Shown in pieces: positions 1,521 to 50,582 of a stretch of 64,000 nt of DNA. Source of the DNA: Lingula anatina (Eukaryota > Animalia > Brachiopoda); the NCBI GenBank assembly GCA_051362555.1, contig CM120643.1, forward strand, positions 19,658,848 through 19,722,847, given 5' to 3'. The translations under genes were made by a program, and so were the position numbers. Within the stretch, counting starts at the first letter, position 1, and the number at the start of each line of letters is the position of its first letter. A model generated the notes under the pieces. That model was not told the origin of the DNA, ran no database searches, and saw only the letters and a list, made by a program, of their open reading frames with translations.

Positions 1521-1768
1521 TGTCTATGAATCATGCAGATCTTTTTTTGTGTTTGTTTGGGGAAGGGAGATATTTGGAGTCGTGCATCATCTTAACCCTC
1601 AATTTTGGCTGGCCTGTGTGTCAAAGCCAAAGCTTTGTACTAATAGCATGTGTTTTATTGCAGCTGATGACAAGGAAGAGAATTCTCTTATGGTTTTAGA
1701 CATTGAAGTGTGTGGCGAGATGACAGAAATAGGGACATTATTTTAGTTTAAGGCACAGTTAAACTGGG

Positions 1769-1799
<31 letters not shown>

Positions 1800-4700
1800 T
1801 TCATTATCTTCCTTTAATTTTGGTTATGGAAAATATTTCAATCTATGGCACTCATGTGCTCTTACTTGGGTACATTGATTAAATCTCATAGAAAGTAGTT
1901 AATGTATTAGTTTGAATAGATTAGACTGCATTGGATGAACATATATTTAAATTACTAAAAAAATTGCTATGCTCTATTATACATAGGCCAAGTTTGTTTT
2001 AGGAATATATCTCGGTATTACCTTTATTTCAACTAAAGTGTATTAGATACCTATTTCTTGACTCTTTACCTATCAGTTCACAGTTTCTTTTTATGTACAG
2101 ACACAGATGTGTCTGTACATATAGCCATCATCTGCGTCTGTCGTCGCCGTCGCCGTCGTCGCTGTCGTCACCGTCGTCGCCGTCGTCGCCGTCGCCGTGC
2201 ACTTTTACCGATAACACGATAAGTGGAAAACCATTTTGCCTTTTGATTTGAAACTTGCAGTACTGATGAATATTCATAATACGCAGGTCGAGTTCGAAAA
2301 TCAGCATGATCGGGTCATTTTTAGTGAATTTAGGCTATTTTTTATTCTCTTTTTTCAGCATATATGCAGCACCGATAACACCATAAATGGAAAACCATTT
2401 GACCTTTTGGCTTGAAACCTACAGAACTGATGAATATTCATAATACGCAGGTCAAGTTCGAAAATCAGCATGATCGGGTCACTCTTAGGGAATTTATGCT
2501 GTTTTTTCACTTTTTTCAACATATATGCAGCACCGATAACACGATAAGTGGAAAACCATTTTACCTTTTGGCTTGAAACTTACAGAACTGATGAATATAC
2601 ATAATACGCAGGTCAAGTTCGAAAATCAGCGTGATTGGGTCATTTTTAGTGAATTTAGGCTATTTTTTATTCTCTTTTTTCAGCATATATGCAGCACCGA
2701 TAACACGATAAGTGGAAAACCATTGTACCTTTTGGCTTGAAACTTACAGTACTGATGAATATTCATAATACGCAGGTCGAGTTCGAAAATCAGCATGATC
2801 GGGTCATTTTTAGTGAATTTAGGCTATTTTTTATTCTCTTTTTTCAGCATATATGCAGCACCGATAACACCATAAATGGAAAACCATTTGACCTTTTGGC
2901 TTGAAACCTACAGAACTGATGAATATTCATAATACGCAGGTCAAGTTCGAAAATCAGCATGATCGGGTCACTCTTAGGGAATTTATGCTGTTTTTTCACT
3001 TTTTTCAACATATATGCAGCACCGATAACACGATAAGTGGAAAACCATTTTACCTTTTGGCTTGAAACTTACAGAACTGATGAATATACATAATACGCAG
3101 GTCAAGTTCGAAAATCAGCGTGATTGGGTCATTTTTAGTGAATTTAGGCTATTTTTTATTCTCTTTTTTCAGCATATATGCAGCACCGATAACACCATAA
3201 ATGGAAAACCATTTGACCTTTTGGCTTGAAACCTACAGAACTGATGAATATTCATAATACGCAGGTCAAGTTCGAAAATCAGCATGATTGGGTCATTTTT
3301 AGTGAATTTAGGCTATTTTTTCACTTTTTTTCAGCATTTTTGCAACACTGATAACACAATAAATGAAGAGCTGTTTTACCCTTTGGCTTGAAACTTACAG
3401 AACTGATAAATATTCATAATACGCAGGTCAAATTCGAAAATCAGCACGATCGGGTCACTTATAGGGAATTTATGCTGTTTTTTTTTCACTTTTTTCAGTA
3501 TATATGCAACACTGATAACACAATATAAGAAAAACAGATTGGCCAATTGTCATTATACTCACAGGAGGGGCCAATCTTACTAAAACGCAGGTTGAGTTTG
3601 AAAATCAGCATAATCAGTCCATTATTTTAAAAGGTAATGCTGTTTTTTCACATTTCCTCACATTCAATTCTTAGGCATGTTAACAGTCTCATTATTGAAC
3701 TAATAAGATACGTAAATGTGTTTGTTTGGCATTTCCTGCATCTTTACAACATTGTTAGTTGATTTTGTAAAAATGATGGTAAACTTGTTATCATGTATTG
3801 TGTAATAAAGTGTCAAAAATGGAAATAAACTCATATCATTGCAGTTTGTCAGATGCATTCATCCACTATGTTCAGAATCTCAGAATGGAGGAAGTTGGGC
3901 ATTTAAAACTGTTCTATTGATACTTTTCCCATCTCATCAATTTTCTTCATTGGTCATATAAAAATGGCAGTAAACTGTTTATTTTGTTTTATGTTTAAAA
4001 AGTGTTAAAAATGGAAATAAACCCATTTCAGAACAGTGCTGTATTGTTTACATTTTGGCATTTTCAATATGTGACTTTGAAGTTCCATGGGCCTGAAGGC
4101 TTTTGCTAGTCACATTTTCTGAATAACCATGATACTAATATTTTATAATTAAAAATTGATGGTCATTATGCTGTAAAACATTATGTAATATTGCATGAAA
4201 ATTTGAAGAAACCCCTATTTTGGGCACTGCTCCCATGATGACCATTTAAGGAAAATCATGTCACTTACTGTTCTCAAACTTACAGGAAAGAAACATGGGA
4301 CTAAAATACAGCTCCAGTAGGCAATGCAGTCTGTTTGGTAAATTTTTCTGGCAATTAAACAGTTTTTTGTGAAAATTTAATTTTTCACTTATTGGCATTT
4401 TCAAGGTGTGACTTTGAAGTTCCATGATCCTGAAGACCTTTGCTTGTCACATTTCCTGAATATCCGTGATACTAATATTTTATAATTAAAAATTGATGGT
4501 CATTATGCTGTTAAACATTATGTAATGTTGCATCAAAATTTGAAGAAACCCCTATTTTGGGCACTGCTCCCATGATGACCATTTAACAAAAATCATGTCA
4601 ATTACTGTTCTCAAACTTACAGGAAAGAAACATGGGTCTAAAATACAGCTTCAGTTGGCAATGCAGTCTGTTTGGTAATTTTTTCTGGCAATTAAACAGT

Positions 4701-6939: not shown

Positions 6940-7076
6940 CAATTCGCTCTGGAGACTACTACATGTTTGAAGATGACTCGGACGAGGACACCATTTCCAC
7001 GGACATCCATCTTGGCAGGGATGAGGATGAAGATGAAGGGACGGAGGAGGAGGACAGGAAACCAGGACCAATGGAG
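6940..7076 (+). CDS. PIEZO: Piezo exon (IRSGDYYMFEDDSDED, beam/latch region)
   Basis: ttgcag acceptor, gtaatt donor; resembles the Piezo2 VRSGDYYLFETDSEEE motif. Confidence 0.9.
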
Positions 7077-10000
7077 GTAATTGACAGGAAATATTTTGTG
7101 AAAATATATAGGTCGAAAAATAGGGGGGGAAAGGCTGAAGAGGGCTTGAAAATTTTTTAAATTACCAAAGGTAATGATATTGAGGAGGAAAGGGTGAAGG
7201 AACAGAACATTTTATCAAAATGAAAATATTTCTAATTTTATGAATGATTTAATCAATCATATTTATAATATTACACGTTTTAACAAACAATTTTATTAAT
7301 CTTATATTATCTAATAGTAAATTTAACAATTTGTTATTTTACAATCCAACTATTTGGTAAAACATAATTTGAAAACATTATTGTATAATCTGTTTACTTA
7401 CAGATTTAACGTTATTATTATTATTATTATTATTGTGTATCTCAGTTGCTGACCACAGCACTGGAGCAGGGTACAGGGGCGGCCCTGGACAAGGCACAGG
7501 TGCCCACAGAAGGGGAACACACAGGAGAGGAACAGGTAGGACGATGTCAGTTGTGGTGATGATGCCATCTCTTCAGTGCACATAATTTTGGAGCCATTAA
7601 AAGTTAATGATTTGGTAATGATTTGGATATTTTCAGAGGGGGAAATGATCAGTCTTTCAGATACATACATAGTTTTGGAACTATTTAAAATTATATTTCT
7701 ATATAGCATTTGTGGTCCTTTTGGGCTTTTACGATAGAGAGAACTATAAGATAGTGGCCTGCTTTTCAATTTTGCTGCAGCTATGCACTCAGTGGAAATG
7801 TTTTAATTTTAAGAATTTATGACTTAAAAAAGTAAAAATACCATCTGCGAAATTCACAATTTCCGCCATTGAAAAGATCAGTTTATTGCCAAAGGTGATA
7901 TATTTCATAGACATTTTTAGATTTTGTCAGATTGTTTAAAATAATTAAGGGATAATGCCTACTTACAGTATTTGACTTGATGAAAATGTAGCCACCTGTT
8001 CTTTGAATAAATCATTCTCTGGCTTACAGGTGAAGTTTTTAGCTAAATTGAAAAGTAAGGCAGCCCATAAGGCCAAGGCAATGCAAAGTTTAATTGAAGA
8101 TTAAATGGATTTGAAAGTGAAAAGTGAATATTGATCCATAGCATGTGATAATGTCCAGCTCAGATCATACTTTGTACAAGTTGAAATTGTAAAAAAAAAA
8201 ATAGCACTGATGAATTTGACAAATGTCAATAAAATAGAAGTTGAGATATAAGACACTTAGACAGTGAAGAAGAACTCGGTTCTAAATTTAAAAAGAGACT
8301 TACCCCTGTGTATTCTCTACTCTAGCCCCCAGGTCAGTCAGGCACTGAGGATAGTGCCACAGGGCCCAGCACCACTCAGACTGGCGCCAGCGGTGCTGAT
8401 GGTGGCCGTGGTGGTGGTGGTGAGGATGGAGCAGAGGAGGAAGAGGAGGAAACAGAAGGTGTCTTTCATGATAAATGCATTAAATGCATTTAATTTCCAT
8501 TTAATTAATTGCAGTCTCCCAAATCTGAGGGATCTATTGGATCACTTAATACTTTACATAAGCCCATGTTCAAAGGGAGTTGGTGGAATTTAAAGAATGA
8601 CTCTTTTGGTTGGGGAAAATGTCAACTCTGAATAATAATTTAATCCAGGGTCTTTATGCCATTTAAAATAATAATAGCAGGATTCACACAGAAAAAAAGA
8701 TCCACCTATATAGACAAAGACTTCTACCCCCACCCCTTATTAAGTTGTTTGCTACAGGCGTGTTATTTATGTCATTGCTATTGATGTATTTCAGCAACAA
8801 AATGGCAGAAAGTGAAGAACTACTTGAAGTTGGGTGTTGCCTTCTTTGGAAGTCTTCTGGATTCCTTCATCAACCTGCTGAATGACATCTCACGGGACTA
8901 CAGACTGGTGGCACGCATTCTAGAGCGCGAAAAGGACCAGAAGAAGGAAGAAATAAAAGTAAGGAATGTATGTATGCCACTCTACTCTCCTAGATGTGCT
9001 TTCCTGTTTTCCAATTTTTTCATCAGAACAAAATATCTGCTTAACAGTTTTATTTGTGAACATGTTTGTTATGTGATAATTTAATAATTTTAGAGGAATA
9101 GTGAATATGGGTACAGTGGTTTTTGGAAGAACGAGATAAAAGAATGTTTGGTCTCATGTTCAAAAATTCAAAAAGGCAAAAATCAAAAATGACAGTTCTC
9201 AAACACAAGCCAGGTCTGGCTGCTATACCACTTACTGGTCAGTGAGTAACAACATCTACTCACATCAATCTGATGAAGGCCTACGTCCAGGTTGACTGTA
9301 AGCTAATGGTATGAAAGTTTTTCGGCTTGTGTTTGATAATTTTCATTTTTGATCCAACTTCCAAGCTTATTAACATTTTCGCTCATTTAGAAAGGCAAAT
9401 CTGGTAAGTGTATGTGAAAAAATGATAAAACCTTTAAAAACATATTGAAATGAATAAGGTGTTTGAAAATTATGCATGCTTGTGTAGTTAACATACTGAG
9501 GTTTAACATACATGTATATACGAAATATAATGTGTTTGTCGTTGATATTCTAGCATGGAGGAAGGGAGATGGAAGACTCAACCAGAGCTGATCAATCAGA
9601 TGAAGAAGCTGTCAGGAAACCTGCAGAGTAAGTATAGGAAACTAGAAAGACTAGTCGAATAATTCTTTAAATTCAAACGCAAGCTTTTTAACTCATTTCA
9701 TAAATTAAAATGTTAAGCTATTTTAGAATCAATATATTATTCAAGTAGCTGAAAAGAAGACGTTTGCAAGCACACCCCTAGGGGTGAAGATCATTTTTAT
9801 TGCTTTCCAAATGCGTACAATGTTTAGGAATTAACCCCACCCTCACCCCCGGTATGATTTGTGGGGTTTTGAAAATTTTGATATGAAAAAAGTATGATCT
9901 TTTAAGTTAATATGTACTTTGATGTTGATTTCAGAGTGAGAATTGAAGTGGAGCCGAGCAGTGCTAGAGACAACATGACATTGGTGCATTTAGAGACGTA

Positions 10001-13000
10001 AGAACACTCTCTATGGGGGAATGGTTTTTCAGTTTAAGTGAAATACGAAAAGGGAATATGCATTGAACTCATTTGCTATATTTATAAGTTGAGTTTTTAA
10101 AGCATACAGTCTTTATGACTCTTCTGGCCCCCTTGTTGTTGAACTACAAAGGGCGGTTGGTTTTGGTTTACCATTTTATGAAAGATATCTTCTTACTTGC
10201 ATGGTTCTTGAGGCTTTCCTTACTCATAAGTCCTGGGTCTATCTTTCAGGCTAGAGCAACAAGCCTTTGATGACCTAGAATACCTGGAACGCCACTCCAG
10301 AATTTACCGCCTTCTTAGCGCCCTCTATACGGCCATCATCTCGCGGACAGAGCTCCTGTGCTACTTCTTCATGATCCTGAACCAGATGCTGTCGGCCAGT
10401 CTGCTGTCCCTGCCGTACCCTTTTGCTGTGTTCATGTGGGGGATGCTGTCTGTGCCCAGGCCAGCCAAGGTGTTCTGGATCACCATCATTACCTACACAG
10501 AAGTAAGGATGCACACGCACGCACTCACTCACTCACTCACTCACTCACCTACTCACTCACTCACTCACTCTCTCTCTCTCTCTCTCTCTGACAATGTGTG
10601 CACAATAATGAGCATATAATAAGAGGAACAATCATGTTCATATGTACACACATACCTATATTTTAAAATGGCTAAGATATCACACATATACATTTCATTC
10701 ATATGGTGCACTGTGCACGCGCGCACACACATGCACACACACACATGTCGATGAAGACAAGTTACAATATTATTGTTGTACATGGTCCTTGCAATGGTAA
10801 CAGTCATACATACATCAATTTTTCTTGACACTGGTGGTCCACCATTAGATGTTATCTTCTCTGCATTAAGTTAAAAGATGAGTGTGCACTTCAAAGGGTT
10901 TTATGACAGCTATGAAATGATATATTTATGTGTCCCTCCAGGCGGTGGTGGTCCTCAAGTACCTGTTCCAGTTCGAGTTCTTCCCCTGGAACTCTGAGGT
11001 CTTGGTTCACAAGGATGACGTGTTTTGGCCGCCCAGGATCCTGGGAATTGAGAAGAAGGATAACTACGCCACCGTGGACCTGTTTTTACTGCTTATACTC
11101 TTCATACATAGATCTGTGCTGAAGGTAGGATTAGTGAAGATTGTTTGTGTGTGGAGAGAGGGAGAGAGAGAGGGGGGGATGAGATTGAGAAGAAGTCAGA
11201 AACATTCTTTGTAAAAAACTGTCATCAGTTAGAACTCTTCTTTCTTTGACACCTTACTTCCTATTCTATTATCCTTTGTTTCTGAAGCTGTTTTTTCCTT
11301 TCATCTATATTTTTCCTGGCTTTACTGTTGACCTTGTAGAGTTATGGGTTTTGGAGAACCAAGGAATCATTGGTAGAACAGTTCAATAAAGCACATAAGA
11401 TGCACCAAAAAAAATGTGTCACACGTTTTAAACATAGGAAGTCAAAAGTAGGTCTGTTTATAAGCACAGTTCAAAAATTTGTTTGTTTATTTATTTTTTG
11501 TTTTGTTTTTTCTGTTCGATGTTACTGCATTATTAATGCTTAATGTTTTCAAAGTTTGATTTCATGTGTTAAAACTTATCCAGTTATTTTATATATCCTT
11601 ATTTAAGTATTTCAGTCTAAAATTTTTAACAAAAATGATATATTTGAAATTGACTTTTTGTATTTTAAAGATTCATCAACAAGAAGTTGACTAATATTTT
11701 TCTTTGTGGCCATATTTCTTTAAATGTTTGCTTTGTTTGTTTAATTCATTGGCCTTAAATTATTGAATGTGCCTTTGCTTTTTTTTCTTTTTAATCATAA
11801 GAGTGAATGAAAGCTGATATACTGCTTAATTGCTGCAAGTGTTTTCATGCCATTGAATTTGAACATTTCCAGTTCATATTTGAAATTGAATGAAAGCTGA
11901 TATACTGCCTATTTGCTGCAAGTGTTTCCATGCCATTGAAATGGGAGAATTTGAAAATTTCCAGTTCATATTGGAGGGTGGGGTGGGGTGAGGTACTGTA
12001 AGCACTAGCTGGGGGTGGGGTAAGGGGGGTATGGACTGTGATCAGCTAATGTCTGTTAGGGTTATGGACTTTGATTTGTTAATTGCTTTTAGGGTTGTGG
12101 ACTGTGATTTGTTAGGGTTATGTATTGTGATCTGTTAATGTCTGTTAGGGTTATGGACTGTGATTTGTTTATTACTTTTAGGGTTATGGACTGTGGAAAG
12201 ATGAGCAGAGTCTTGAGGAAGATTTCCGCAAGGCTGAAGCCAGTGAGAGAAGCCACCCGGGCTCCCCTGAAGACGAGAATGTGGTAAGATTTGGACAACT
12301 TTTTTCTTATCTTAAATTTTTTCATGCAAGCTGCATGTATGAATGGCATAATTGACTAACCCTTTATTCAACATCAGATTCTGTTCTCTCTGCAGCTTTT
12401 TTTATTTAAAAATGACAGTTTTTCTACATTGCATTGTCACAACTGCAATATTGTATAAACAAACGAGCAGTAATATTTTTTTACTTTTCCAAGTGAGGTA
12501 AAAAGATAGTTTTGAGCTGAAAAGGAGATAGCATGCATTGAAAGAAGTTCAACCTTTAAAGAAGTGCAGCATGTTCAACTTTTAGTATGTTGTATGAGAA
12601 CCTTCACTTTTTTGCACTGCATTTTTTACAAATTAAAAATAGCTATGTCATTTTAAATGAAACATCAACATTGTTTTCAGACCCTGAGCACAGAAGCTGG
12701 TGCTGCTAGTGATGAGAAGGAAAGCAGCGGGGAGACTGCGGCTGAAGAGGATGAGCAAGGGGAGGAAGAGGGAGAGGAGGAGGAGGAGATGTTGGATGAA
12801 GAGGAGGAGGAAGAGACAAAGAAGAAGAAAAAGAAGAAAAGAAAGAGGAAGTATGGACAGATTATTACAGTTTTTTCTAATGTCATCTTTTTTCAATCCA
12901 ATTATCTTTCAAGGGATATAAAATTGGTATTGGGAAGTCATGTTAGCAGTTTTTTTTTTTTTTTTTTTTTTTTATACACTGTACTTACTTACCAATAAAT

Positions 13001-15410
13001 AACTACACAATAACTAAACAGTAACTGAGAAGAACATCTCATGGTGAACAAAGACCTTGTTTTGTATATATAAATCACAATATTAACAAATACGTATTGG
13101 CAAAGACTACAATAATTCCCCTTTTCAGGCCCACCATGTCATGGACCAAGTCAGTGAAGGAGTTCTATCAGAATATGACCAATCCTCTATACAATGCCAC
13201 GGCAGATGCCTATGCTCCCATGTTTGCCTGTGACTTCATTAACTTCCTCATCATCATGTTTGGGTACTGGGCATTTGGACCACCTGTAAGTATACACCTC
13301 CCATGGCACATGGCATATTCTGATAGAAATAGTCCCAAAGTCCCAAAAGATGGTCCCAAAGATTATAGTTAGTATCTTGATGTTTAAGGTTTTGGGATTA
13401 TTGCATGATTTGTAAGTTGGATCCTTAATTTAAAGGGATAATAACTCTTCGTATGATATCTATATTTCACAATAAAAACATTGTGAACAACTCATAGAAA
13501 TATAATATATTCTGTTTTACCACAAAAACGTCAGTTATAGCTATTATTCTCATATCTGAGCTTGTCTTCAGATCACGTGACCTCCATTGATGGCTGTACT
13601 CAGTTATAATCTCTTAAGAGATTTTAACAAAAAAACAAACTTTTTAGAAAAAAACCAGGGACTAATTTTGAATATAAAAATGGATTCATTAACCATTGGT
13701 AAGTATGGGAAAATTGTTGTTTACTCCAGGAAAATTCATTTTTTGGCCAAAACGAAGAGTTATTATCCCTTTAATTGCTTTTTTTTGCCATTGAAAAGAT
13801 GAGAGTAATCCTTTTTGCTTCAATTGATTGATAGATTTAAAGAAATTGAATATCAAGACATAAGATGGATTTAAGACAATATTTAAACTTCCAGACTGCA
13901 GCCAGTGGGGATGCCTCCAGTGTGGCTACATATATATCAGAAAACAGGGTAAGCATGAAAACATAAGAACCAGACTTAGCCCTTTCAAACTTTTTTCTGC
14001 TCCTGGCAAGAAATAATTTTCTTCAGTAGTACGAATTGAAATATATACTCAGACTTTTTTAAAATTAAAATCAGAAATGTGTTTTTTTTTTCTTGAGTTT
14101 TTACTGGCTTCAGTTGCTCTTTGGTCATAAGACCATCAAGCTTCCAACTTTTTTTTTTCAAACAACCCCAAATCCTCCTTGTACACCATATTAATGTCAG
14201 TTTGGCTCTTGGACTTGCCATTTTCTATTACAATAATTCAGTAAGGATTTATCAAACAGTCCTAAAGGCATTTGCTCTTGTGACCATTCTAGATCCCATG
14301 GCCATTCCTGGTCATGCTGATTGTCCAGTTTGTCCTGATAGTGGTGGACAGAGCTCTGTACCTGAAGAAGGACGTGTTTGGCAAGTTTGCGTTCCAGATT
14401 ATCCTGGTCCTGGTGCTACATATTTGGGTATTCTTTGCTCTGCCTGCTATCACTGAAAGGTGAGATGGTGTGTGGGTGTTTGTGTATGTGTATGTGTATG
14501 TGTGCACCCCTGTATGAGTGTGAGAGAGCAAGAGAAAGAGAGAGAGAGAGCAATAGAGAAAGGATAAAAGTACAATCTTTTCACTAAGACCACATTCAGA
14601 TTCACACATCTGTGGGGGATTCTCACTATAGTGCAATCAGGGGAATAAGTTTCTCAAGCAGAGGGGGGGGGATAATTATCTACTGTGTGCTTATGAAGCT
14701 GATTCCACTGACTGCACTTTAGGCAAAATCCTTTGCAGAGTTGGATTAACACAGCTAGTGTGATGAGTGAATATGAATGCACCCTAAGTGTACCTCAGAA
14801 AATGAGACTTAGGAAGGAAAGAAATTTTGGTAGTCTAGCATGACAAATTAAAGTTACTTGACAAATTATAAAAATAATTTGACATCTTGCTTTTGTTTCA
14901 GAAAATTTGTAGACAATGTCCCAGCTAATCTATGGTACTTTGTGAAGTGTGTTTACTTTGGGTTGTCTGCCTATCAGATCAGATGTGGCTATCCGACCAG
15001 AATCCTGGGCAACTTCCTCACCAAGTCCTACAACTACCTCAACCTCTTCTTATTCAAAGGGTGAGTATTTAACTAGGTTTTTCTTTATATTGCAAAATTG
15101 CAGAACTTATTTTATTCAAAACTGGTTGGAAGAGGTTGTTTTTTCCTCTGTGGTCATATTTTGTCGTCAAACTATTTATCAGCAGGTATTTTATGTCTAT
15201 CACTTTTGTCTTTCTGCTTTCACACATACACATTAGCACGCACGCAAGCAACCATGGGTGTACAGCACACACATACACTAGTTTTCACACTGATAAATGT
15301 ATTTGTCATATTTTTCTTGTTTTTATTTCCGTTCCTCTGGAATTCCTCTGTTTGGTAATCAAGTTTCAGTCAAGCACCCCAATATCACTTCAGTGATTCA
15401 TTCTTTTAGT

Positions 15411-15480
<70 letters not shown>

Positions 15481-15754
15481 GCATTTTCTCACTGATAAAT
15501 GCAAATGTACATGTATGATAAATGTATGAAATACTTGATTATTTCAGCTTTCTGGCCATCCCGTTCTTGCTGGAGTTGCGTGCTCTGATGGACTGGATCT
15601 GGACAGACACCACCCTGGCGCTGGGCAGCTGGCTGCAGATGGAGGATATCTACGCCAATATCTACGTCCTCAAGTGCTGGAGGACTGCAGAAGATGTGAG
15701 CAGAGATGTTCTTTTATTATTATTTATTTAAATTCGTATTTATTTTCTTTTTAA

Positions 15755-15798
<44 letters not shown>

Positions 15799-17026
15799 GC
15801 AGTAGTTATAGTGAACTAGTTTGTGAGAGTGCCAAATTGAACAAATGCATAACTGTTTTATATAACTTTATTAAAATTACTGTAAGTCAAATGCGTACAA
15901 ATATTGCACAAAATGTGTGCATCACTGATGTGACTCATCTGTTCACTTTTTTTTTAATTTTACAATTATGAAGTGAAGATATTATACCACCTATTTATTT
16001 ATTTATTTATTTAATTTCAGAAATACCCCACACCTAGAGGCAACCCACGGCGAGCGATAGTGAAATACGGATTTGGTGGCTTGGTGCTTTTCCTCATCAT
16101 CTTCATCATCTGGTTCCCGCTGGTCCTCTTCTCCTTCGCCAACACTGTATACCTGCCCAACCCTCCCATAGAGTGCAGGATCTCTGTGGAGCTGGCAGGA
16201 TATCTGGTAGGTGATAAAAGGACTAGAATTCTGAGTAAAAGAGTACAATTAGTAATAATGAATTCGCTAGACACAGTTGTTATTCGGACAAATATCAGGT
16301 AGGTAAGGTTGAAATATATTATTCTCTTTTCTGGAACATTTCTTCAAATGATCAGAAAATGTTCACTAGTAAAAATGACTATAACTTACTTAAAAATGAG
16401 ATGGCAGGTAATTATGGTGCTTGTATAGCATATTCATATGACCATCCTGACTAAAGTTTCATACTAATCAAATTTCCTGTATGAGCCATAAAATACTAAA
16501 TTTATTCATACCAAGCAGTATTCAGCATGGCACAAAATATGAGGGGCACTGTAAGGGATGTATAAACCTGGATGTCTTCACTGGATTAACTCCTGATTTC
16601 CTTTCCAGCCCCTGTACCAGATGAATGCCCAGCCGGGCCAGATCTACCAGTTCACAGACCAGGATTACAGGACACTGCAGGATAACTATAAAATGGATAA
16701 CGTAAGGCTGCATGCAAGGCATTTTTGTGTTATATATAACCCCAACTCTCTATTATGTTATCCTGTTATCTCATTTCTTTGTGGAATTCTACCTGAATGT
16801 GGCAAAGACATTGCTGTTTAAGTTTGTGTTAAGAATATGTTACAAGAATATAATCAATAATGATAATAATGTTTACACATATTACTTTTAAAAGAAGTAG
16901 TAGTTGTAACAGTTACTCTAGTAGTAGTAGTAGTTATAGTTGCACTATATTAAGTTTTTTTATTATTATTATTGTTATAATTATTATCATTGTTTATTAT
17001 TTTTAAATTATCATTATCATCATATT

Positions 17027-17117
<91 letters not shown>

Positions 17118-20100
17118 ATGTCCAAGCATTCCTGAGTATCTATGAGGCCAAGGATACAGTGAGGATAGAAGTCCTGGGGACGTCCACCGCCACCTGGGCC
17201 ATCAGCCCACCCACCATGATGGACATGGTGAAGGACCTGAACGACACGAAGAAGGACATCAAGATCAGGCTGAAGGTGGAGATGATCAGGTGATGAAGGA
17301 GTTCTTGGTAACGAGATGGAGGTCTTGTGGATTTATCTGGGAATAGGGATGTTTGGGTGTTCAAATGATGCCTCCAAGACCTCCTACCCCCATAAAGAAT
17401 GGCACTTCCCTCGAATGCTTGCATTTTCAGGGTTTTTTTTCTTTTTTTTTCAAAATAAAGAAAGGTCCACTTTCATCTCTGTTGGCACTTAGGCTAAGGC
17501 CTAAGGACATTGCTGACAAAATTGTTTTAGTTTCATCTTATTATAATGGACATTTGATTGTAGCCCCACCACCAGTATAATCAAGGTAAAATTTTCATGA
17601 AATAAATGTGGAGAGCTGAAGAAAAAAAAGGAAAGTAATGTATATGAAACTGGTTGCAATTCAAGTAGTAGGTGCACGTAATGGAAGTAGTTTTTGAAAA
17701 TTAAGCAATTAAAAGACAGTTTTAACTCTAGGTTACACTTTGAAAACACCAGGTAAAAGTTAGGTAATCAAATTCTAACGTTGTTATCTATAAATTTACC
17801 TGGATAGATGACCTTGAATCAGCCTATGAATAAAATATAGATAGAAAGATATTGCTAAGACATACGAGTTACTGAGGATTCAACAATAGTTACATGTTAA
17901 TGTCTAGATATTCTGTGATACATTTCTATTTTCTGGCTGTCATTTTTCCAGGGATCCAAAAAAAGGCCAGTCAGCCAACATCATCAGTCAGTGGTTTGAG
18001 CAGCCACTCAATAAAAGTCAAAGAATCGAACTTGCAAGGATTGTTAATACTAGTAATACATTTGGAAGTTTGGGCAGTATGTAAGTACATCTAGGCTTGC
18101 ACGCAATTTGTTAAATTGACACATGGTAATACATTTGGAAATTTTGACAGTAGCTTTGGTCACATTTTTTTTATATATATAATTTGAACAGTGCAGGTGT
18201 ACAGTAGTTGGACATAGGGAAAATATTTTGCACTGTGATCAAACTGTGTATAATCAGGCCTGTACAGGGGGGGTGTGGGGTCTACGAACCACCCTTTTTG
18301 CAGGGAGTGGTCTGCTCTGGATAAAAATTGATCTACATACATGAAGGCTTAATGGTAAAAGGTCCACTATTTCAGGAAAAGAGCTCCCAATTTCAGGATG
18401 GAATCGCTGATAACGGGCCTGATAATAATAATTCTTATCAAACTAGTTGTAAGTGCATACAGGAGCACATTTCAGTGTCTTCAAATCAAGATTTGATCTA
18501 GTTATCTCCGCCAAGGAGGTTATGTTTTCAACCCTGTTTGTCTGTCTTTCTGTCCGTCATCAACATAACTCAAAAACTTACGGACCGATTTTGATGAAAT
18601 TTTCAGGAACTGTCAGAAGTGGGCCAAGGAACAGATGATTAGTTTTTGGTGGTGATCCGGATCAATAATCAATCAATAATAATAATAATAATAATAAATT
18701 GCTGCCCTGGCGGAGGTCTGGGCTCTCGGAGTGCTTTTCTAGTTGGCAATATATTTATTCTCAATTTCAGATATGTGTTGAGGCTCCTTCCAAAGTTTCT
18801 CCAAGTCCCTGTGAATGGACGACCGTCAGAAGTCCGTGCTCTTAAAGGTACAATAGAACCAAGTGTTGGTGGAGCATGGATTCCCAGTAAAGCAAATAAA
18901 CCACTTCTGCAGTGTGCTAGTTTCTTATACGACTAAAATAAAGTCAACATGCTAAGGGATAAACTGAATTAATCATTTGATCAGACATAAAAGAGCCTTA
19001 AACCGCACCTTCTTCAAAGTTTTGGTCATAAATTTGGCCTGCTTATCTGACCAACTTATCTGCCTGTTAATATACATGTACAGCACAGAAGGCAAACAGA
19101 AAAATCTGTTCAAATATCATTTTTCAAGTAATACGGAACAATGTCTTTTGGTATTTCTCTAAGTTATACCATTTCAAACGATATGGTCGCATTCAGTCTG
19201 TTTTTGAGGCAAAAAAATGACCTCAAATGCATCTTTAAAAATGATAGTAAGACTTTATTAACAAGAGAGACAGGGCTATACAGTGTATGTACCTTTAGCA
19301 TATTTTAACAGCAGGCTCACTGTAAACACAATAATGGTCTCTCGTTGGGGATCAGTGATTGCATACTGGATCTCATTTTAGTTTTTCATGTACACTTTGA
19401 CAATGGTTATCACATGGACCATGCACAACACATATTTTAAGCCACATAAAAACGGTTTGACATTGCTCAATATACTAATCATCCAGTCCCATATACAATT
19501 TGATAATACACTGTCCATATACCCTTTCTAGAAGGAAGTCCTCTCCCCACCAACATCAGCCTGACCCTGAAGAGAGGGGACGTCTTCAACAATGAGAGTA
19601 CCAGTGCTGAGTGGTGGGAGGTTCAGGAGTTTGTCAGAGGGAGATACAACCTGAACTCAAATGACAAACTGGTTAGAAGAGATTACCTGACACTGGTGGC
19701 CTTCAGTGAGAGGGTGGCACCTCCTGGGTTTGATTTGCTCACAGGATATGGGTAAGTGTGGTTGAGTGTGTTGGGTGAGAGGCTGAGTGTGGTAGGTGAG
19801 AGGCTGAGTGTGGTAGGTGAGAGAGAGGAGTGTGATAGATGAGAGAAGTTTAGTAGGTGAGAGGCTGGGTGTGGTAGGTGAGAGGCTGAGTGTGGTAGGT
19901 GAGAGAGAGGAGTGTGATAGATGAGAGAATTTTAGTAGGTGAGAGGCTGGGTGAGGTAGGTGAGAAGCTGAGCATGTTAGGTGAGAGGCTGACTGTGGTA
20001 AGTGAGAGGCTTAGTGTGGTAGATGAGAGAGAGGAGTGTGATAGGTGAGAGACGGTGTGATAGGTGAGAGGCTGAGTGTGGTAAGTGAGGCTTAGTGTGG

Positions 20101-23100
20101 TAGGTGAGAGAGAGGAATGTGATAGGTGAGAGACAGAGTGTGGTAAGTGAGAGGCTTAGTGTGGTAGATGAGAGAGAGGAGTGTGATAGGTGAGAGACAG
20201 TGTGATAGGTGAGAGGCTGAGTGTGGTAAGTGAGAGGCTTAGTGTGGTAGGTGATAGAGAGAGAAGTGTGATAGTTGAGAGAAGTGTAGTAGGTGAGAGG
20301 CTGAGTGTGGTAGATGAGAAATGTATTCTTATGGTGGTTTCAATTGGTGGTTACAGAATGCATGTTTATACATGTGAATACATCTATGGTCTGTTGGGAG
20401 GGGGGGTAAATGGTGTGCATGTACATGTGTGTGTATGTTCTTTTCTAAAGGAGCTGATAAGTGTTTTTGTGTTTTGAACAGGTGAGGGCCTTGAGTTTTG
20501 GACAGTTGTTCTATTGACTTGTGAGCATGGCATGCCAGCTTTTTTGCTTGTTCATGTACATGTGAATGTTTTATTTGAGAATATTTACAGTATATGCTGT
20601 GATAACTTTTTGTATTTTTTAAAGATTTTGAAGATAATGAATGACAATTAAAATTCTTTTTAATGCTGTCACTTCATCTAAGCAACCATTGTTTACATCC
20701 TCTATGTTTCTTATAACTCTGCTTTATCTATCATGCATTGCAACATTTCTCTTCTATTGATTATGATGTTATCTTTTAAATTCAATAGAATTAAGTTTAT
20801 ATTTTTATTTTTTGTTGTTGACAATGCACTTCAGTTTGATAGCTCCCCCCTGCCCATCTCGATCAAATCCCCTTCCCCTGGGTTATCCTGAAGTATTATG
20901 CATTCACCATTTAGTTTTTTTTATCTTGTTTTACATGCCAGTGAGTTAGATCTGTCTTCTAATGATGGTTTCTATGAGTTTGCATGATTTTCAACTTTAA
21001 ACTGCTTTTGATTTCACATTTTTTACACTCAGAAATACTGTGACTTTTTAATGTTGCATCATTTTTCTATTAATGTGTTTTTTAATTTTAAAGTTAAGAA
21101 ATATTTGAATTTTAAGATTATAAGCATTTTAAAGTTGTGTTCACAGTGGAACTAAGATAGACCCTTCAGTGACTTGATGACGTCACCCAACAACCATATC
21201 ATGAAACCAGTGTTTTTAGTGTCTGAGGCAGGGTGGATTTTAGTTACATCATAATTTTGCCAGATGCCAAAGATGATCCACATTTGTTTAAAAAGAATAA
21301 TTATTTTATGTTGACAATTACTTGCTATTTTGACTCAAAATTGTGATTGGCTAATTGTTTTCAGCAGTTGAGCTGAAGGAAAATTTAAGCTAGAATGAAC
21401 CCTGTGTTACAATCCTTACAGAATCTGGCTGTCTTGTGACATCATATAGTCTACAACAGGTCTTAGTTTGTCCTCATTTGACCAAAGCAAGGCTCTAACA
21501 CCTTGTGTTTTTACTTCAGTGTTGATATGTTGTATGGTTTTATCCTTATTGTTTCCCAGTGGATGACGCATGGTTTCAGAATTACTTTGTTTTTTGTTCA
21601 ACTTCATGTTTCAATTTTTTTGGTTTTGAAAATGTAAGAATTAAGGCTGTTTTCAGCATGGTTTATATCAGTGTTGTCAATGTCTGTGTTTAGATGTGAC
21701 AGGAGAATATGAAGAATGATTAAGTGTCTTTTAATTGTCATATTACTTTTAATATTCATCAAAAGGTGTTATTTAATTTGCTGTAGGCAGTTATTGTATT
21801 AAAATACTATCCACGTGTTGAATTGCAGTAGATTTTTTTCTTGAATTGTTGAATTTCGTTTTTAAGAGAGTGTTAGTTAAAACAAGTGAAAACATCAACA
21901 AATTGAAAGTCAGTTATATACATGTACTTAAGTTATAAAAATATTGTACAAAATGTTTTATTTATTTATTTTATTATTATTATTTTTTTTGTATTTATTT
22001 ATTTTTATTATTATTATTTTTTTTTTTTGCAAAATTGAAAATTGACAGTTATATTAATAGCATAGCAGTACTTATTGTTCTTTGCTGCTCACAGGGCTGT
22101 CAATTATTTTACCATGTTTAGTGACAGCTAATAAGAAGGGTATTATGTATGCCATTCATAAGTTCCCTCATGATCAACTTCTCATATGCCAATTGACCTG
22201 TTTCACACTGTCACAGTCTGTCCTCCATGTTATGTGCCCACTTTTACAGCATCATCGGCCTGTATCTCTCCTTCATTCTGGTCATTGGACGAATCTTCCG
22301 CTACAGCACCACTGGGCTTCTTTCTTGGATTATGTTCCGAGAACTGCCATACGTGGATCGAATTCTCAGCCTCTGTTTGAATATCTACCTTGTACGTGAG
22401 ATGAAGGATTTCAAGCTGGAAGAGGAGTTGCTGGCAAAGTTGTTGTTTGTGTATCGTTCTTCAGAGACGATGATTAAATGGACACGTCGACCCAAGCAGG
22501 ATTAACAACTGCCCATCACATTGAAATTTATAGATATGAGTCAAATGTAGTTTGAATCACAAGGTTGATTCTAATTGTTTGCTTAAAACTACTATTGTTT
22601 AAAGAAAGTTTTAGAAAGATTAAACGGCAGCTGAGCTCTATTTATAACTTACACAGTTTTATTATAAGATATTAGTCTCATTTCTAATGTTTTTACACGG
22701 TTTTTGTGTGTGCCTTTTTTCTTTTGAACTCTTTTCTTCCTTTAATATGTTGAGTAAAGGTTATTTCTTCCAACATATTCAGTGGATATTCTGTAGGTTT
22801 TATAAAAAAATGTAAAAATAGTTATTAGTTTATTAATAACTATTTAAGAAAGAATTTTTCTGCTTTTGACACCATTGTAATGTTTAAGGTATGCTCATCA
22901 AATTTGACTCTCTGATTATCAGTCCTAAGCTTTGTTAACTTTTGACTTAGATTGTTCTTTTCTATTTTGACACTCATTAGAGAAAGGAATATCAATATTT
23001 GTCCTTAGTATCTCCATAAGTAAATGAATGATCACACAGAAGTGCATTTTAAATTGTTACAGAAAATTTTGTTAACATGTGCTGTAGATAGACACTTGCA

Positions 23101-23629
23101 ATATTCTATAACATGTAAACTCCAAAAACTGTCATTAATGGCAGTGTCTTAAACTGCTTCCCCCCCCCCCCCCCCCATCCCCCCTCCCATCCCCCCCCCC
23201 CCCCCCTCCTTCTTTTACAACCACAATATTATGTACTGTAGATTTAAAGTTTTTTTTTTTATCATCAACACTTTCCCCTTTCCATCCCCCCCCCCTCTCC
23301 CCTCATTTCCCTTTCTAAATCCACTACTTTTTACTTGTATTATAATTTCACGTGAATTGTGCTGGTCTCGTTACAGTGTCATTGGCCTCTATATCTCCCT
23401 GGTATTTGTGGTGGGACAATTTGTAAGGACGTTCACCAGTGGCATGCACCGACAGATCATGTTTGAAGAACTCCCTTACGTAGACAACATCCTCAAACTG
23501 TGTCTGAATGTCTACTTGGTGCGGGAGTGTCGGGAGTTTATGTTAGAGGAAGACCTTTATGCCAAACTTATATTTTTGTATCGCTCTCCAGAGACAATGA
23601 TAAAATGGACCAAACTGAAGGAAAGCTAG
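6940..23629 (+). CDS. PIEZO: Piezo mechanosensitive ion channel, 3' portion of a multi-exon gene (5' exons lie upstream of the window)
   Basis: GT-AG exons join in one frame: 6940-7076, 7446-7535, 8326-8458, 8795-8958, 9554-9627, 9935-9997, 10250-10502, 10942-11124, [11340-11447 and/or 12182-12283], 12681-12850, 13129-13285, 13895-13948, 14293-14459, 14902-15060, 15548-15695, 16021-16206, 16609-16701, 17117-17289, 17952-18080, 18771-18847, 19532-19751, [22250-22505 or 23377-23629]. Piezo motifs: IRSGDYYMFE, KYLFQF, DRALYL, SAYQIRCGYP, PFLLELRALMDWIWTDT, IIWFPL, MFEELP, AKLIFLYRSPETMIKWT. Confidence 0.97.
7446..7535 (+). CDS. PIEZO: Piezo exon (LLTTALEQG...GEEQ)
   Basis: ctcag acceptor, gtagga donor, phase 0-0, open frame. 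Confidence 0.75.
8326..8458 (+). CDS. PIEZO: Piezo exon, low-complexity intracellular loop
   Basis: tctag acceptor, G/E-rich open frame, phase-1 donor gtgtct compatible with the next exon. Confidence 0.7.
8795..8958 (+). CDS. PIEZO: Piezo exon (KWQKVKNYLKLG...ISRDYRLVARILEREK)
   Basis: tttcag/gtaagg sites; helix resembles the Piezo SR.YR.V...L..EK segment. Confidence 0.88.
9554..9627 (+). CDS. PIEZO: Piezo small exon
   Basis: ttctag/gtaagt, phase 0-2, frame-compatible with neighbours. Confidence 0.72.
9935..9997 (+). CDS. PIEZO: Piezo small exon (VRIEVEPSSARDNMTLVHLE)
   Basis: tttcag/gtaaga, phase 2-2, 63 nt. Confidence 0.72.
10250..10502 (+). CDS. PIEZO: Piezo exon, transmembrane repeat (ELLCYFFMILNQM...PRPAKVFWITIITYTE)
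   Basis: Conserved Piezo TM motifs; tttcag/gtaagg. Confidence 0.95.
10942..11124 (+). CDS. PIEZO: Piezo exon (VVLKYLFQFEFFPWN...PRILGIEK...HRSVLK)
   Basis: Conserved motifs; ctccag/gtagga. Confidence 0.95.
11340..11447 (+). CDS. PIEZO: Candidate alternative Piezo exon (SYGFWRTKESLVEQFNKAHKMHQKKCVTRFKHRKSK)
   Basis: Pyrimidine tract plus ttgtag acceptor, gtaggt donor, 108 nt phase 0-0 with no stop; starts with the YG(F/L)W motif that follows HRS.L in Piezos; paralogous to 12182-12283. Confidence 0.6.
12030..12195 (+). repeat. Tandem copies of a Piezo splice acceptor plus exon start
   Basis: Repeated tag-ggttatggactgtg units. Confidence 0.85.
12182..12283 (+). CDS. PIEZO: Piezo exon (GYGLWKDEQSLEEDFRKAEASERSHPGSPEDENV)
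   Basis: ttttag/gtaaga, 102 nt phase 0-0; YGLW motif. Confidence 0.88.
12681..12850 (+). CDS. PIEZO: Piezo exon, acidic then polybasic loop
   Basis: tttcag/gtatgg; E-rich run followed by a K/R-rich run. Confidence 0.8.
13129..13285 (+). CDS. PIEZO: Piezo exon (ADAYAPMFACDFINFLIIMFGYWAFG)
   Basis: Conserved D.Y..MF..D and FG..AFG motifs. Confidence 0.95.
13430..13774. mobile_element. TTAA-flanked Kolobok-like MITE
   Basis: TTAA-AGGGATAATAAC...GTTATTATCCCT-TTAA; homologous to 35500-35810. Confidence 0.8.
13895..13948 (+). CDS. PIEZO: Piezo exon (TAASGDASSVATYISENR)
   Basis: ttccag/gtaagc, 54 nt, phase 0-0. Confidence 0.88.
14293..14459 (+). CDS. PIEZO: Piezo exon (IPWPFLVMLIVQF...DRALYLKK...LPAITE)
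   Basis: Conserved motifs; ttctag/gtgaga. Confidence 0.95.
14902..15060 (+). CDS. PIEZO: Piezo exon (WYFVKCVYFGLSAYQIRCGYPTRILGNFLTK)
   Basis: Highly conserved Piezo segment; tttcag/gtgagt. Confidence 0.97.
15414..15474. repeat. (CA)n microsatellite
   Basis: Direct read. Confidence 0.95.
15548..15695 (+). CDS. PIEZO: Piezo exon, anchor domain (PFLLELRALMDWIWTDTT, MEDIYANI)
   Basis: PF.E......W signature motif; tttcag/gtgagc. Confidence 0.97.
16021..16206 (+). CDS. PIEZO: Piezo exon, outer helix (KYGFGG...IIWFPLVLFS)
   Basis: Conserved outer helix; tttcag/gtaggt. Confidence 0.96.
16609..16701 (+). CDS. PIEZO: Piezo exon, cap domain (PLYQMNAQ...)
   Basis: ttccag/gtaagg, phase 0-0. Confidence 0.9.
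17031..17113. repeat. (TAT)n microsatellite abutting a Piezo splice acceptor
   Basis: Direct read; runs into cag at 17114-17116. Confidence 0.95.
17117..17289 (+). CDS. PIEZO: Piezo exon, cap domain (S.ATWAISPP)
   Basis: W.ISPP cap motif; attcag/gtgatg. Confidence 0.92.
17952..18080 (+). CDS. PIEZO: Piezo exon, cap domain
   Basis: ttccag/gtaagt, phase 2-2, open frame. Confidence 0.85.
18255..18421. mobile_element. MITE with CAGGCC.GT TIR and ataat duplication
   Basis: caggcctgt...acgggcctg flanked by ataat on both sides. Confidence 0.6.
18502..18743 (+). mobile_element. Short HINE/DINE-1-like element
   Basis: Homologous to 5915-6149. Confidence 0.75.
18771..18847 (+). CDS. PIEZO: Piezo exon, cap domain (YVLRLLPKFLQVP)
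   Basis: L.PK.. cap motif; tttcag acceptor; donor gtacaa lies inside a transposon end. Confidence 0.85.
18842..19238. mobile_element. TTAA-flanked Kolobok-like non-autonomous transposon overlapping a Piezo exon end
   Basis: TTAA-AGGTACA...TGCATCT-TTAA; colinear homolog at 58883-59266. Confidence 0.8.
19532..19751 (+). CDS. PIEZO: Piezo exon, end of cap (EWWEV...FSERVAPPGFDLLTGYG)
   Basis: EWW and FS.KV.P...L.GYG motifs; ttctag/gtaagt, ends phase 2. Confidence 0.94.
19752..20320. repeat. G/A-rich minisatellite (ggtaggtgagaggctgagtgt-like units)
   Basis: Starts at the donor of exon 19532-19751. Confidence 0.9.
22250..22505 (+). CDS. PIEZO: Piezo alternative last exon A: inner helix plus CTD (divergent)
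   Basis: ttacag acceptor, phase 2; GIIGLYLSFILVIGRIFR...IMFRELPYVDRILSLC...AKLLFVYRSSETMIKWTRRPKQD*. Confidence 0.88.
23377..23629 (+). CDS. PIEZO: Piezo alternative last exon B: inner helix plus CTD (closer to consensus)
   Basis: ttacag acceptor, phase 2; GVIGLYISLVFVVGQFVR...IMFEELPYVDNILKLC...LYAKLIFLYRSPETMIKWTKLKES*. Confidence 0.92.
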
Positions 23630-25091
23630 TTCACAATGTTTGGGAAATGAATTCTTTCACTGGGCTTGTAGTTCTACTTTTTGGTTTTAGCTGAGAAGAT
23701 CAGATTTTGACCTTTAAAAAAATGAGGGGAAATTGCTGAATTGATAATTTACACATTTCAGTTAATAACTTTTGATAGTGTAGGGTGAAATTGAAAATTA
23801 GCCCAGCCATGGAGTGCTTAGGTTTATAGTGCTAGAATAGGAATCAATGTATTAATTATAAATGGTGATGCGCTCAAGATTTTTAAAACATGGATTAATA
23901 ATGTTATGTGCAAGATAATGTTTTAACGGGGAGTGTACATTTTTCTTGGGGGGGGGGGGGGGGTTGGTATATATTTATTGGGATGTCTGTTGTGGTTTTT
24001 AACTTGGTTGAATTACTAAAAGTACGCATTAACTGTTTGTCACCACTGTTTGAATACATGAAGTAGCACTTTTTTTTCCATTTCTTAAGAGTTGCGTTGT
24101 AGTCGCACCTTGTAGATAGTTTCACATTGGGCTTTGTTTTTGTATTTTTTCACGTTACTGCCTTACCAAAAATAATGCATTAGTAAATAAAGGATGAACA
24201 TTAAATGTTAAATCCTCCGCTTGCTGCATGAAATGTGTGATACACAATAAGATCTGCTTTTATGATATTAATTGAAAATTAAGTTATATTTATTGGGCAG
24301 CCGATTTTGATATAGATCAATGTTGTAGTTCATGTACTTACCTGGGGTTAGGACTTCAAACTGCTCAAAAATTGGTTTTGAAATAAAAAGCGCTTTGAAG
24401 CCAATTTTAAATATGTCAGTGTTTAGGGACAAAATATATGCATAAATTACAGTAAAAATTTACTAAGTAGTTTTAAAGATGTGTTAAGAAAACGTTTTGC
24501 TTGTTTGTTTATTGCATGTAGCTTTAATCATGAATGTCAATAAGTCCTTTACTGTAGCTTGCATATTTGTTCCAGATTGATATGTTTAGAAGGTAGCACT
24601 TCTATATCAGGTAAGGTCACTGGCAGAAATAGAACTTGTAGATTAACAGAAAAAAACTTAATTTAAAACTAAAAAAAAAATAATTACTGGATGATTTTTC
24701 TTGCATCCTGTGTTGTACATTGGACATTTTATCAGGGGAATTTTTACAGTGTTATTGGTGATAAGGGTTTTTGTTTTGTTTTATAATATTTTAATTCTAG
24801 AATTACTTTTTTGTGGATAAATCAAATGTTGTGGATAATGTGGCCAAAACTGAAATTAATGAGACAAATTCTATAAAAAAAAAAGCTGCTCAATTTTAGG
24901 ACAGTAATATCAGAACTGAAATACTATAATTATTTTAAGTGGATTAACTGAGCTCATCGAGTTCAGCGTAGTGTTAACAAAGTACATTTCTCACATACAC
25001 ACAAGCTAGATAATGTGCAAGGAGGATGGGAGCAAGTTTATCTTATTCATATTGTAACTAGCATCTGCACTATCTTGGTTTGTCGGTCAGT

Positions 25092-27243: not shown

Positions 27244-31610
<4,367 letters not shown>

Positions 31611-31743
31611 CTTTAGCTCTGAATCAAATATTTCCCGCCAAACTGTATTCACTAATTTTAATCTCTCAACAAATGTGGTCGAGACGAAAGAAGAAAGTCG
31701 CCTCCGTATTCTGGAGAGTTCCTAATATTTCCCGTTATATTTG

Positions 31744-50295: not shown

Positions 50296-50437
50296 ATGAT
50301 GGGAAGATGGAACTGCATTCGGGGGTCCAAAGAAGACGACGATGCGAAAAGATTACGCGAGAATAACAAGAAAATCGAAAAACAGCTGCAGAAAGATAAA
50401 CAGCTCTACAAGGCCACACATAGACTTCTTTTATTGG
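50296..50437 (+). CDS. GNAS: G protein alpha-s, proximal first coding exon (1b)
   Basis: [48 protein letters not shown] then gttagt, phase 1; in-frame TAG upstream at 50242. Confidence 0.88.
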
Positions 50438-50582
50438 GTTAGTAATACCGCTTAAATATCGACGCCGCATCGTATTTGTGGGTTTGTTTTGTAGCCGTGT
50501 GGGCGGCCATGATATTTGTTACCTTCGTCATACTGCACCGGCTTTCTGCCGACTAACAGATATCCATGTCGTGTTTTTTCAG

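Follow-up and report, generated by a model that had tools for sequence, protein, structure and literature searches.

Does a single Piezo gene build channels with two different pore linings? The question is raised by a 64,000-nucleotide stretch of a Lingula anatina contig (hereafter the window), which contains the 3' half of the Piezo gene of this brachiopod on the + strand and in which the gene runs out in two tandem copies, A and B, of the exon for the pore-lining inner helix (TM38) and the CTD. The answer developed here is that these tandem TM38+CTD last exons, likely the product of one duplication before the brachiopod–mollusc split and likely used one per mRNA, probably give rise to two channels with the same blades and cap and with a predicted difference in ion preference and gating.

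Several lines of evidence identify the gene: Lingula protein models align to the window exon by exon, from 6963 to 23626, in tblastn searches; the translation of exon A is 100% identical to the C-terminal end of RefSeq XP_013388062.1 (Lingula anatina); the Pfam families PF23188, PF24874 and PF12166 score above cut-off in both the isoform with the A end and that with the B end; and the Piezo domain series (THU, anchor, cap) is followed by inner helix and CTD. The donor of the penultimate exon, GG/GTAAGT at 19751/19752, is in phase 2, and the two homologous last exons have acceptors of equal phase, both reading TTACAG and ending at 22249 (A) and 23376 (B). Joined to either of them, the penultimate exon (19532-19751) forms one open frame, which closes at TAA 22505 or TAG 23629; a random 84-codon frame would stay open at the local intron composition with p = 0.002. 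The sequence-only reading had seen two intact paralogous last exons with correct-phase ttacag acceptors and their own stops, only one of which can be translated per mRNA, and the open spliced frames bear it out on each count. Its phrase "interchangeable pore modules" was too generous, since the swap covers TM38 and CTD only, while anchor, outer helix and cap are common to both products. Both exons align gap-free to the TM38+CTD of solved Piezos (Piezo1 residues 2466-2547; best E-values 3e-24 for exon A and 1e-31 for exon B), and hence mouse residue numbering is used for them throughout. An AlphaFold model of exon A alone (mean pLDDT 68, pTM 0.46) predicts a helix at residues 2-20 and three later helices; it thus shows the expected helices and is uninformative on the pore. 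Taken together, we consider it practically certain that A and B are two alternative last exons of one Piezo gene (Table 1).

Table 1. Features of the Lingula Piezo locus, in window coordinates
Feature	Position	Strand	Basis or remark
Further upstream Piezo exon matches	1016-1090, 1657-1743		tblastn of Lingula proteins
Shared upstream Piezo coding exons (distal blade, anchor, outer helix, most of cap)	6963..18846	+	tblastn with Lingula P0003, P0016, P0017, P0018, P0019; Pfam PF23188, PF24874, PF12166
Penultimate shared exon, end of cap to ...TGYG, phase-2 donor GG/GTAAGT	19532..19751	+	
Candidate conserved intron element 5' of exon A	21000..21031	+	27/32 bases match L002 783-814
Alternative last exon A, derived copy, TM38 + CTD, stop TAA	22250..22505	+	end of RefSeq isoforms X1, X3
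Candidate proximal poly(A) signal ATTAAA for A transcript	22619..22624	+	motif only
Alternative last exon B, closer to canonical Piezo end, TM38 + CTD, stop TAG	23377..23629	+	end of RefSeq isoform X2, model P0017
Candidate distal poly(A) signals AATAAA 24186, ATTAAA 24200, AATAAA 24382	24186..24387	+	motif only

In a gap-free alignment, the two exons have 49/83 residues and 149/249 bases in common, and their identity by codon position (51, 65 and 33 of 83 at positions 1, 2 and 3) is lowest at the third. The corresponding pS of 0.77 is saturated and the pN is 0.26; a pN of 0.25-0.26 alongside saturated pS holds both for A against B and for Lingula against its orthologues in L002, a metagenome locus described below. 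Saturated synonymous sites with low pN point to an old duplication with both copies under purifying selection, in keeping with the earlier observation that they had diverged without disabling changes. The 60% DNA identity, the saturated synonymous sites and the presence of the same pair in other animals exclude a haplotype or assembly artefact. Moreover, a second Lingula Piezo model on another contig, P0017 (XP_013404042.1), matches the window exons at 88-100%, is annotated with B only and has a C-terminal end identical to exon B; thus, A and B are not haplotypes of each other, as the sequence-only reading had also argued from their divergence, and the contig of P0017 is probably an allelic scaffold. 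A remnant of a second Piezo gene is excluded by the lack of any other Piezo exon between or after the two copies in the window. Translation of both exons into one protein is likewise excluded by the stop in exon A, and we take database models that fuse the two as annotation errors. Internal mutually exclusive exons of the Dscam type have a shared downstream coding exon and competing docking/selector RNA pairings; such a shared exon is absent here, as both last exons carry a stop codon.

A check of relatives, which the earlier reading had proposed for dating the duplication, reveals the A/B pair far beyond Lingula, in bivalves, abalone and octopus. Both ends were found in nine named molluscs, and RefSeq models of eight species contain both. 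RefSeq isoforms X1 and X3 of Lingula end in A and X2 and XP_013404042.1 in B, with XP_013388062.1 (X1, A) and XP_013388063.1 (X2, B) forming a pair. In Crassostrea gigas, XP_011438487.1 and XP_011438488.1 (X1, X2) have the two ends after the same penultimate sequence, and Haliotis asinina contributes the pair XP_067651571.1 and XP_067651570.1. The ratios of A to B that follow count gene models, not transcripts, and RefSeq isoforms are predictions: 6:1 in H. asinina, 9:1 in Ostrea edulis (two fragments set aside), 6:1 in Ruditapes (one fragment set aside), 7:1 in Mya, 14:1 in C. virginica among the matches listed (15 of 25 in the cluster) and 12:3 in the Octopus cluster among the matches listed (15 of 23), where B is found in O. 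bimaculoides. In the clusters examined, only A was seen in 11 named molluscs, namely Littorina (3/3), Nucella, Lymnaea, Elysia, Pinctada, Mactra, Ylistrum, Pecten, S. echinata, O. vulgaris and O. sinensis, and only B in Argopecten. Models from Mya, Solemya and Saccostrea cucullata fuse A and then B, by which the order of the exons is shown. The pair is, therefore, a real, old and conserved feature that is already present, unremarked, in automatic gene models.

Transcript evidence comes from oyster. The oyster cluster holds five long Logan proteins (893-902 aa; longest contigs behind them 3.3-6.8 kb), and the final 500 residues of every one are those of RefSeq X1, a span that includes the junction into A. 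Their uninterrupted reading frames probably reflect spliced transcripts, which would make this junction a genuine one in oyster; no assembled transcript of a mollusc was seen to end in B. For Lingula itself, we judge it highly likely that both exons are used.

An alignment scan of metagenomes found 100 loci, 80 of which were kept; two full copies occur in one of the 80, the above-mentioned L002. In its raw DNA, copy A (at 2346) precedes copy B (at 4244); both follow an AG acceptor in phase 2, both have a stop of their own, and both group with clam exons in the tree. In a separate metagenome scan that used exon A by itself, none of the 593 candidate stretches was confirmed. Eight related loci (L031, L035, L042, L043, L049, L054, L056 and L058) have a single B-like exon only, 0.9-2.3 kb past the penultimate exon, and L017/L018 have one copy with 10 kb downstream; the A/B pair is not universal. 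The phase-2 intron before the inner helix is also found in many of these loci, and this old exon boundary is what would have allowed TM38+CTD to duplicate as one unit. As to L002 itself, a motif of 13 intronic bases recurs immediately before the AG in its two acceptor regions (2300-2345 and 4200-4243), and its A and B, with a pS of 0.50, are closer at synonymous sites than other A–B pairs; the likeness may be due to a common splice signal, to gene conversion or to a codon bias of both exons. Another locus (L001:1-7871) encodes 2388 Piezo residues in one unbroken ORF, which resembles mollusc and Lingula Piezos to about the same degree and has an A-like end in which K-H at 2495-2496 marks the loss of both acids. 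Beyond these, fused models of Timema genevievae (P0264) and T. bartmani (P0287) contain two tandem inner-helix segments up to the first CTD helix, the extra copy having K at the R2482 position and grouping with insect sequences, and may represent an independent pair of alternative inner-helix exons. Model P0265 of the bdelloid rotifer Didymodactylos carnosus has two tandem, strongly diverged TM38+CTD copies that group together (97/82, long branch), which suggests a separate duplication.

What, then, sets A apart from B? We compared 22 A exons, 11 B exons and 10 outgroup ends in mouse Piezo1 numbering. Position 2473 is F in 22/22 A, no B and one of the outgroups; 2474 is I in 21/22 A and V in all others; 2476 is L in 18/22 A as against V in 10/11 B; and 2480 is I, M, V or L in 18/22 A as against F in 10/11 B. 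The stretch 2484-2486 is mostly S-T-T in A, with F2484 lost in all 22, and F-F followed by S, A or T in most B and outgroup ends. M2516 is found in every A exon and nowhere else. Position 2495 is never acidic in A (R13, L6, K2, N1) and is acidic in 8/10 outgroups. At the same time, A keeps R2482, E2496 (21/22) and the CTD core.

All residue calls of the sequence-only reading for Lingula are correct on the structure alignment (R2479, I2480, R2495 and S2536 in A; F2475, Q2479, E2495 and P2536 in B), and they differ in how far they can be generalized. The loss of the acid at E2495 extends to the whole A set, with R or K in 15/22. R2479 fails as a mark of A, being present in 22/22 A and 10/11 B, so that Q2479 is a peculiarity of Lingula B; the serine at P2536 is true of Lingula A but not diagnostic (S or A in 14 A exons, P in eight), and both positions were rejected as A marks. 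Similarly, B keeps MFEE in Lingula, but among the 11 B exons position 2495 is Q5, E4, D1 and M1. The most constant A marks, F2473, I2474, S-T-T at 2484-2486 and M2516, had escaped the earlier reading.

In terms of charge, the portal quartet 2487/2491/2495/2496 sums to 0 in A, whereas in B it carries -1 or -2; this holds for all ten named species pairs, which are not independent, four of them being oysters; in L002 the values are -1 (A) and -2 (B). The contrast often amounts to one charge, since the quartet sums to -1 in three outgroup Piezos, and 6/10 pairs show no A–B difference in net charge over the whole stretch 2478-2499.

These differences can be read against mouse data, cited here for the particular statements. 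Ions are reported to leave via lateral portals lined by E2487, S2491 and E2495/6, neutralization of which lowers cation selectivity (PMC7815867, PMC7796548). The pore-facing residues are given as L2469, I2473, V2476 and F2480; L2475/V2476 gate inactivation, serine at I2473 or F2480 did not prolong it, and the neck (P2536 region) affects deactivation and current size, not inactivation (PMC6349400). Further, F2484L raises and P2536L lowers the open probability, with conductance unchanged in both (PMC13157073), and K2479Q is reviewed as abolishing the voltage dependence of inactivation (PMC10531961); Lingula B has Q at this very position. When combined with the residues of A, the mouse mutants lead to the prediction that A is less selective for cations and Ca2+ and gates unlike B. 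Briefly, we advance the following mechanism: the lumen of A would be reshaped by F at pore-facing 2473 and a mostly non-aromatic 2480; the inner end of its lateral portal would be charge-neutral and might thus pass cations and Ca2+ less selectively; and it would open or close at rates different from those of B. The prediction for A stops short of an anion channel, as E2133 and E2172 are retained in the anchor common to both products. Cells with both exons could form mixed A/B trimers through the shared cap, which makes such trimers plausible. Provided that both ends are used, a measurable difference between A and B in permeation or gating appears likely on this analysis.

The main competitor of this reading holds that both ends are used and the channels behave alike, the pair being kept since the 3' UTRs or short tails control mRNA location, stability, trafficking or binding partners. 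Each exon does bring its own 3' UTR, bivalve A tails are longer and of a pattern unlike that of B tails, and invertebrate Piezos tolerate L, Q, D and E at 2495. Nevertheless, the constant A–B differences are concentrated in the pore helix and the linker of the portal (2473, 2474, 2484-2486, 2495) and recur in the brachiopod as well as in bivalves, gastropods and cephalopods, whereas the tails vary freely; hence, we regard this explanation as unlikely. Far less probable still is that A serves as a poorly conducting or regulatory subunit, which tunes or dampens B-containing trimers and forms no channel of its own. Such a role could be seen in the absence from A of F2484/F2485 and of the acid at 2495, residues that vary little or not at all among vertebrates and arthropods, and in Haliotis A, where both acids (2495/2496) are gone. 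Against it, A is the only end seen in the 11 molluscs named above and the commoner end in the RefSeq sets, all five long oyster Logan proteins end in it, it retains R2482, E2496 and the CTD core, and an A-like end with F2473, I2474 and R2495 is the sole end in 8/8 models of the nemertean Tubulanus, a sequence on a long unplaced branch.

The age and polarity of the duplication were approached with a tree of 48 rows and 80 columns. It unites all 22 A rows, from Lingula and molluscs, in a single clade (98/93) and leaves the B rows unresolved among arthropod, tunicate and vertebrate ends, with no supported B clade against the outgroups. An A clade with B among the outgroup ends implies that A is the derived and B the conservative copy, and the union of Lingula and mollusc A exons points to one duplication predating the brachiopod–mollusc split. 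In AU tests, a clade of Lingula A+B, as expected of a Lingula-only duplication, is not rejected with 48 rows (p 0.075), and is rejected (p 0.025 and 0.019) on a balanced subset of 16 rows chosen afterwards, in which a mollusc A+B clade has p 0.006 and 0.003 and the A clade 100/99. Profiles from which Lingula was left out give Lingula A 142 bits with mollusc A, 119 with B and 118 with outgroups, and Lingula B 142 bits with B, 139 with outgroups and 132 with A. In 11 columns Lingula A has the mollusc A majority residue and Lingula B differs, as against one crossed column; at eight columns the two Lingula exons agree although mollusc A and mollusc B have different majority residues. In a 64-row tree, a wider A group (94/85; bootstrap not settled) also takes in the annelid Ridgeia and several further rows. 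That one of the Lingula exons is a silent, unspliced relic, or that the pair arose independently in Lingula and molluscs with convergent changes, is very improbable: the B-only P0017, the 48-row AU result and the eight conflicting columns speak for it, but both frames are intact with synonymous sites saturated, 11 columns to one tie Lingula A rather than B to mollusc A, A likewise precedes B in L002, Mya, Solemya and Saccostrea, and the 16-row test rejects the Lingula clade. We conclude that the pair very probably has one origin shared with molluscs.

A more far-reaching version of the proposal would make A a splice-selected second Piezo pore of lophotrochozoans, the pair being more than 500 million years old, with a neutral lateral portal, a re-lined lumen (F2473/L2476) and weak cation preference or low Ca2+ permeability; it would be the main mollusc form, would mix with the canonical form in trimers, and, with pore-exon duplication recurring independently in a bdelloid rotifer and stick insects, would exemplify a general Piezo strategy. 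In this full form, we offer it as a tentative and rather doubtful possibility.

With respect to how one exon is chosen, an mRNA spliced to the near acceptor would encode A, whether it is cleaved at the candidate proximal poly(A) site (ATTAAA 22619) or runs on so that B lies within its 3' UTR; skipping of the near acceptor in favor of the far one, with the candidate signals at 24186-24387, would yield B. Among the 25 longest of 67 inverted-repeat pairs, there is no common arm pairing upstream of both exons, as docking-type RNA pairing would have it, and all 25 are A+T-rich or poly-C/poly-G. Poly-C tracts at 23160-23206, upstream of B, are complementary to poly-G at 23948-23967 in the B 3' UTR and would bracket exon B, probably by chance. 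The stretch 21000-21031 matches L002 783-814, also upstream of exon A there, with 36.5 bits, a score reached by 0/30 other window stretches, 0/100 shuffles and 1/73 stretches of other loci, and might be followed up as a weak lead to an intron element. The motif GCATG, which is linked to RBFOX proteins, is enriched upstream of A (7 copies, shuffle mean 2.1, 3/500; in L002 5 copies, shuffle mean 1.7, 16/500); TGCATG is not enriched there (Lingula 59/500, L002 112/500 shuffles). As TGCATG is not raised and 3/33 window bins reach six copies of GCATG, we give it no weight as a splice signal. A 21-base G-rich tandem repeat of about 27 copies lies in the intron at window positions 19763-20319 and begins 11 bases past the alternative donor.

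A close precedent is another channel. The Shaker variants of Drosophila derive from duplicated 3' exons. As in the Piezo pair, splice variants A and B of this one gene differ in the pore-lining helix (S6 position 463, A or V), and they are reported to differ roughly 100-fold in C-type inactivation (PMC2223370). Shaker, however, is a tetrameric voltage-gated K+ channel, and the Piezo swap also covers selectivity-linked portal residues. Within the Piezos, mammalian PIEZO1.1, which is without the lateral plug and has a conductance of 44 pS (bioRxiv 10.1101/2023.09.28.559900), and Piezo2 variants are described as tuning conductance and inactivation by splicing (bioRxiv 10.1101/2023.09.28.559900; PMC10531961); as presented in the relevant passages of these sources, they add or drop peripheral intracellular segments and involve no paralogous TM38/CTD swap, whereas in Lingula TM38+CTD is the variable segment. 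The mouse Piezo1 and Piezo2, fly and worm structures (6bpz, 5z10, 6kg7, 9w7x, 9uoy) match both exons gap-free, and the A signature (F2473-I2474, S-T-T 2484-2486, basic 2495) is in none of the three solved chains among the alignments listed. A mollusc Piezo phylogeny, self-described as the first, places mollusc Piezos in a single clade and has neither "isoform" nor "splic" in its main text (PMC11682238). A leech is reported to have two piezo paralogues, and the piezo passages of that report are silent on a duplicated pore exon (PMC7992859). RefSeq holds the same two ends in the Lingula, Crassostrea gigas and Haliotis asinina isoform pairs as unremarked predictions. Thus, splice variants in a pore-lining helix are known, as is Piezo splicing at the lateral plug and peripheral loops; for a duplicated Piezo pore exon, no earlier description was found in literature searched by title and abstract start, with subscription journals outside the scope.

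Piezo selectivity and inactivation have so far been dissected with engineered mouse point mutants. The pair offers evolution's own matched set, one sensor with alternative pore linings that recurs in 10 or more species, and hence a ready chimera series with which to trace Ca2+ permeability, anion leak and gating to particular TM38/CTD residues and to see whether mixed trimers are intermediate. It also suggests how animals with a single clade of Piezos could gain the division of labor that vertebrates get from two genes. On the practical side, mollusc Piezo studies using one model may have the wrong pore, and the database models of Mya, Solemya and Saccostrea that join both exons represent an artefactual protein.

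The remaining observations concern the window at large. Its own Piezo gene is annotated as two split models, P0018 and P0003. A short frame at about 50300-50440 on the + strand, which has no Pfam match, resembles the N-terminus of a G-protein alpha-s subunit. Finally, exons of a GMP reductase-like gene lie at about 27250-31720 on the - strand, convergent with Piezo, the last of them identified by PF00478 and the others by eye.
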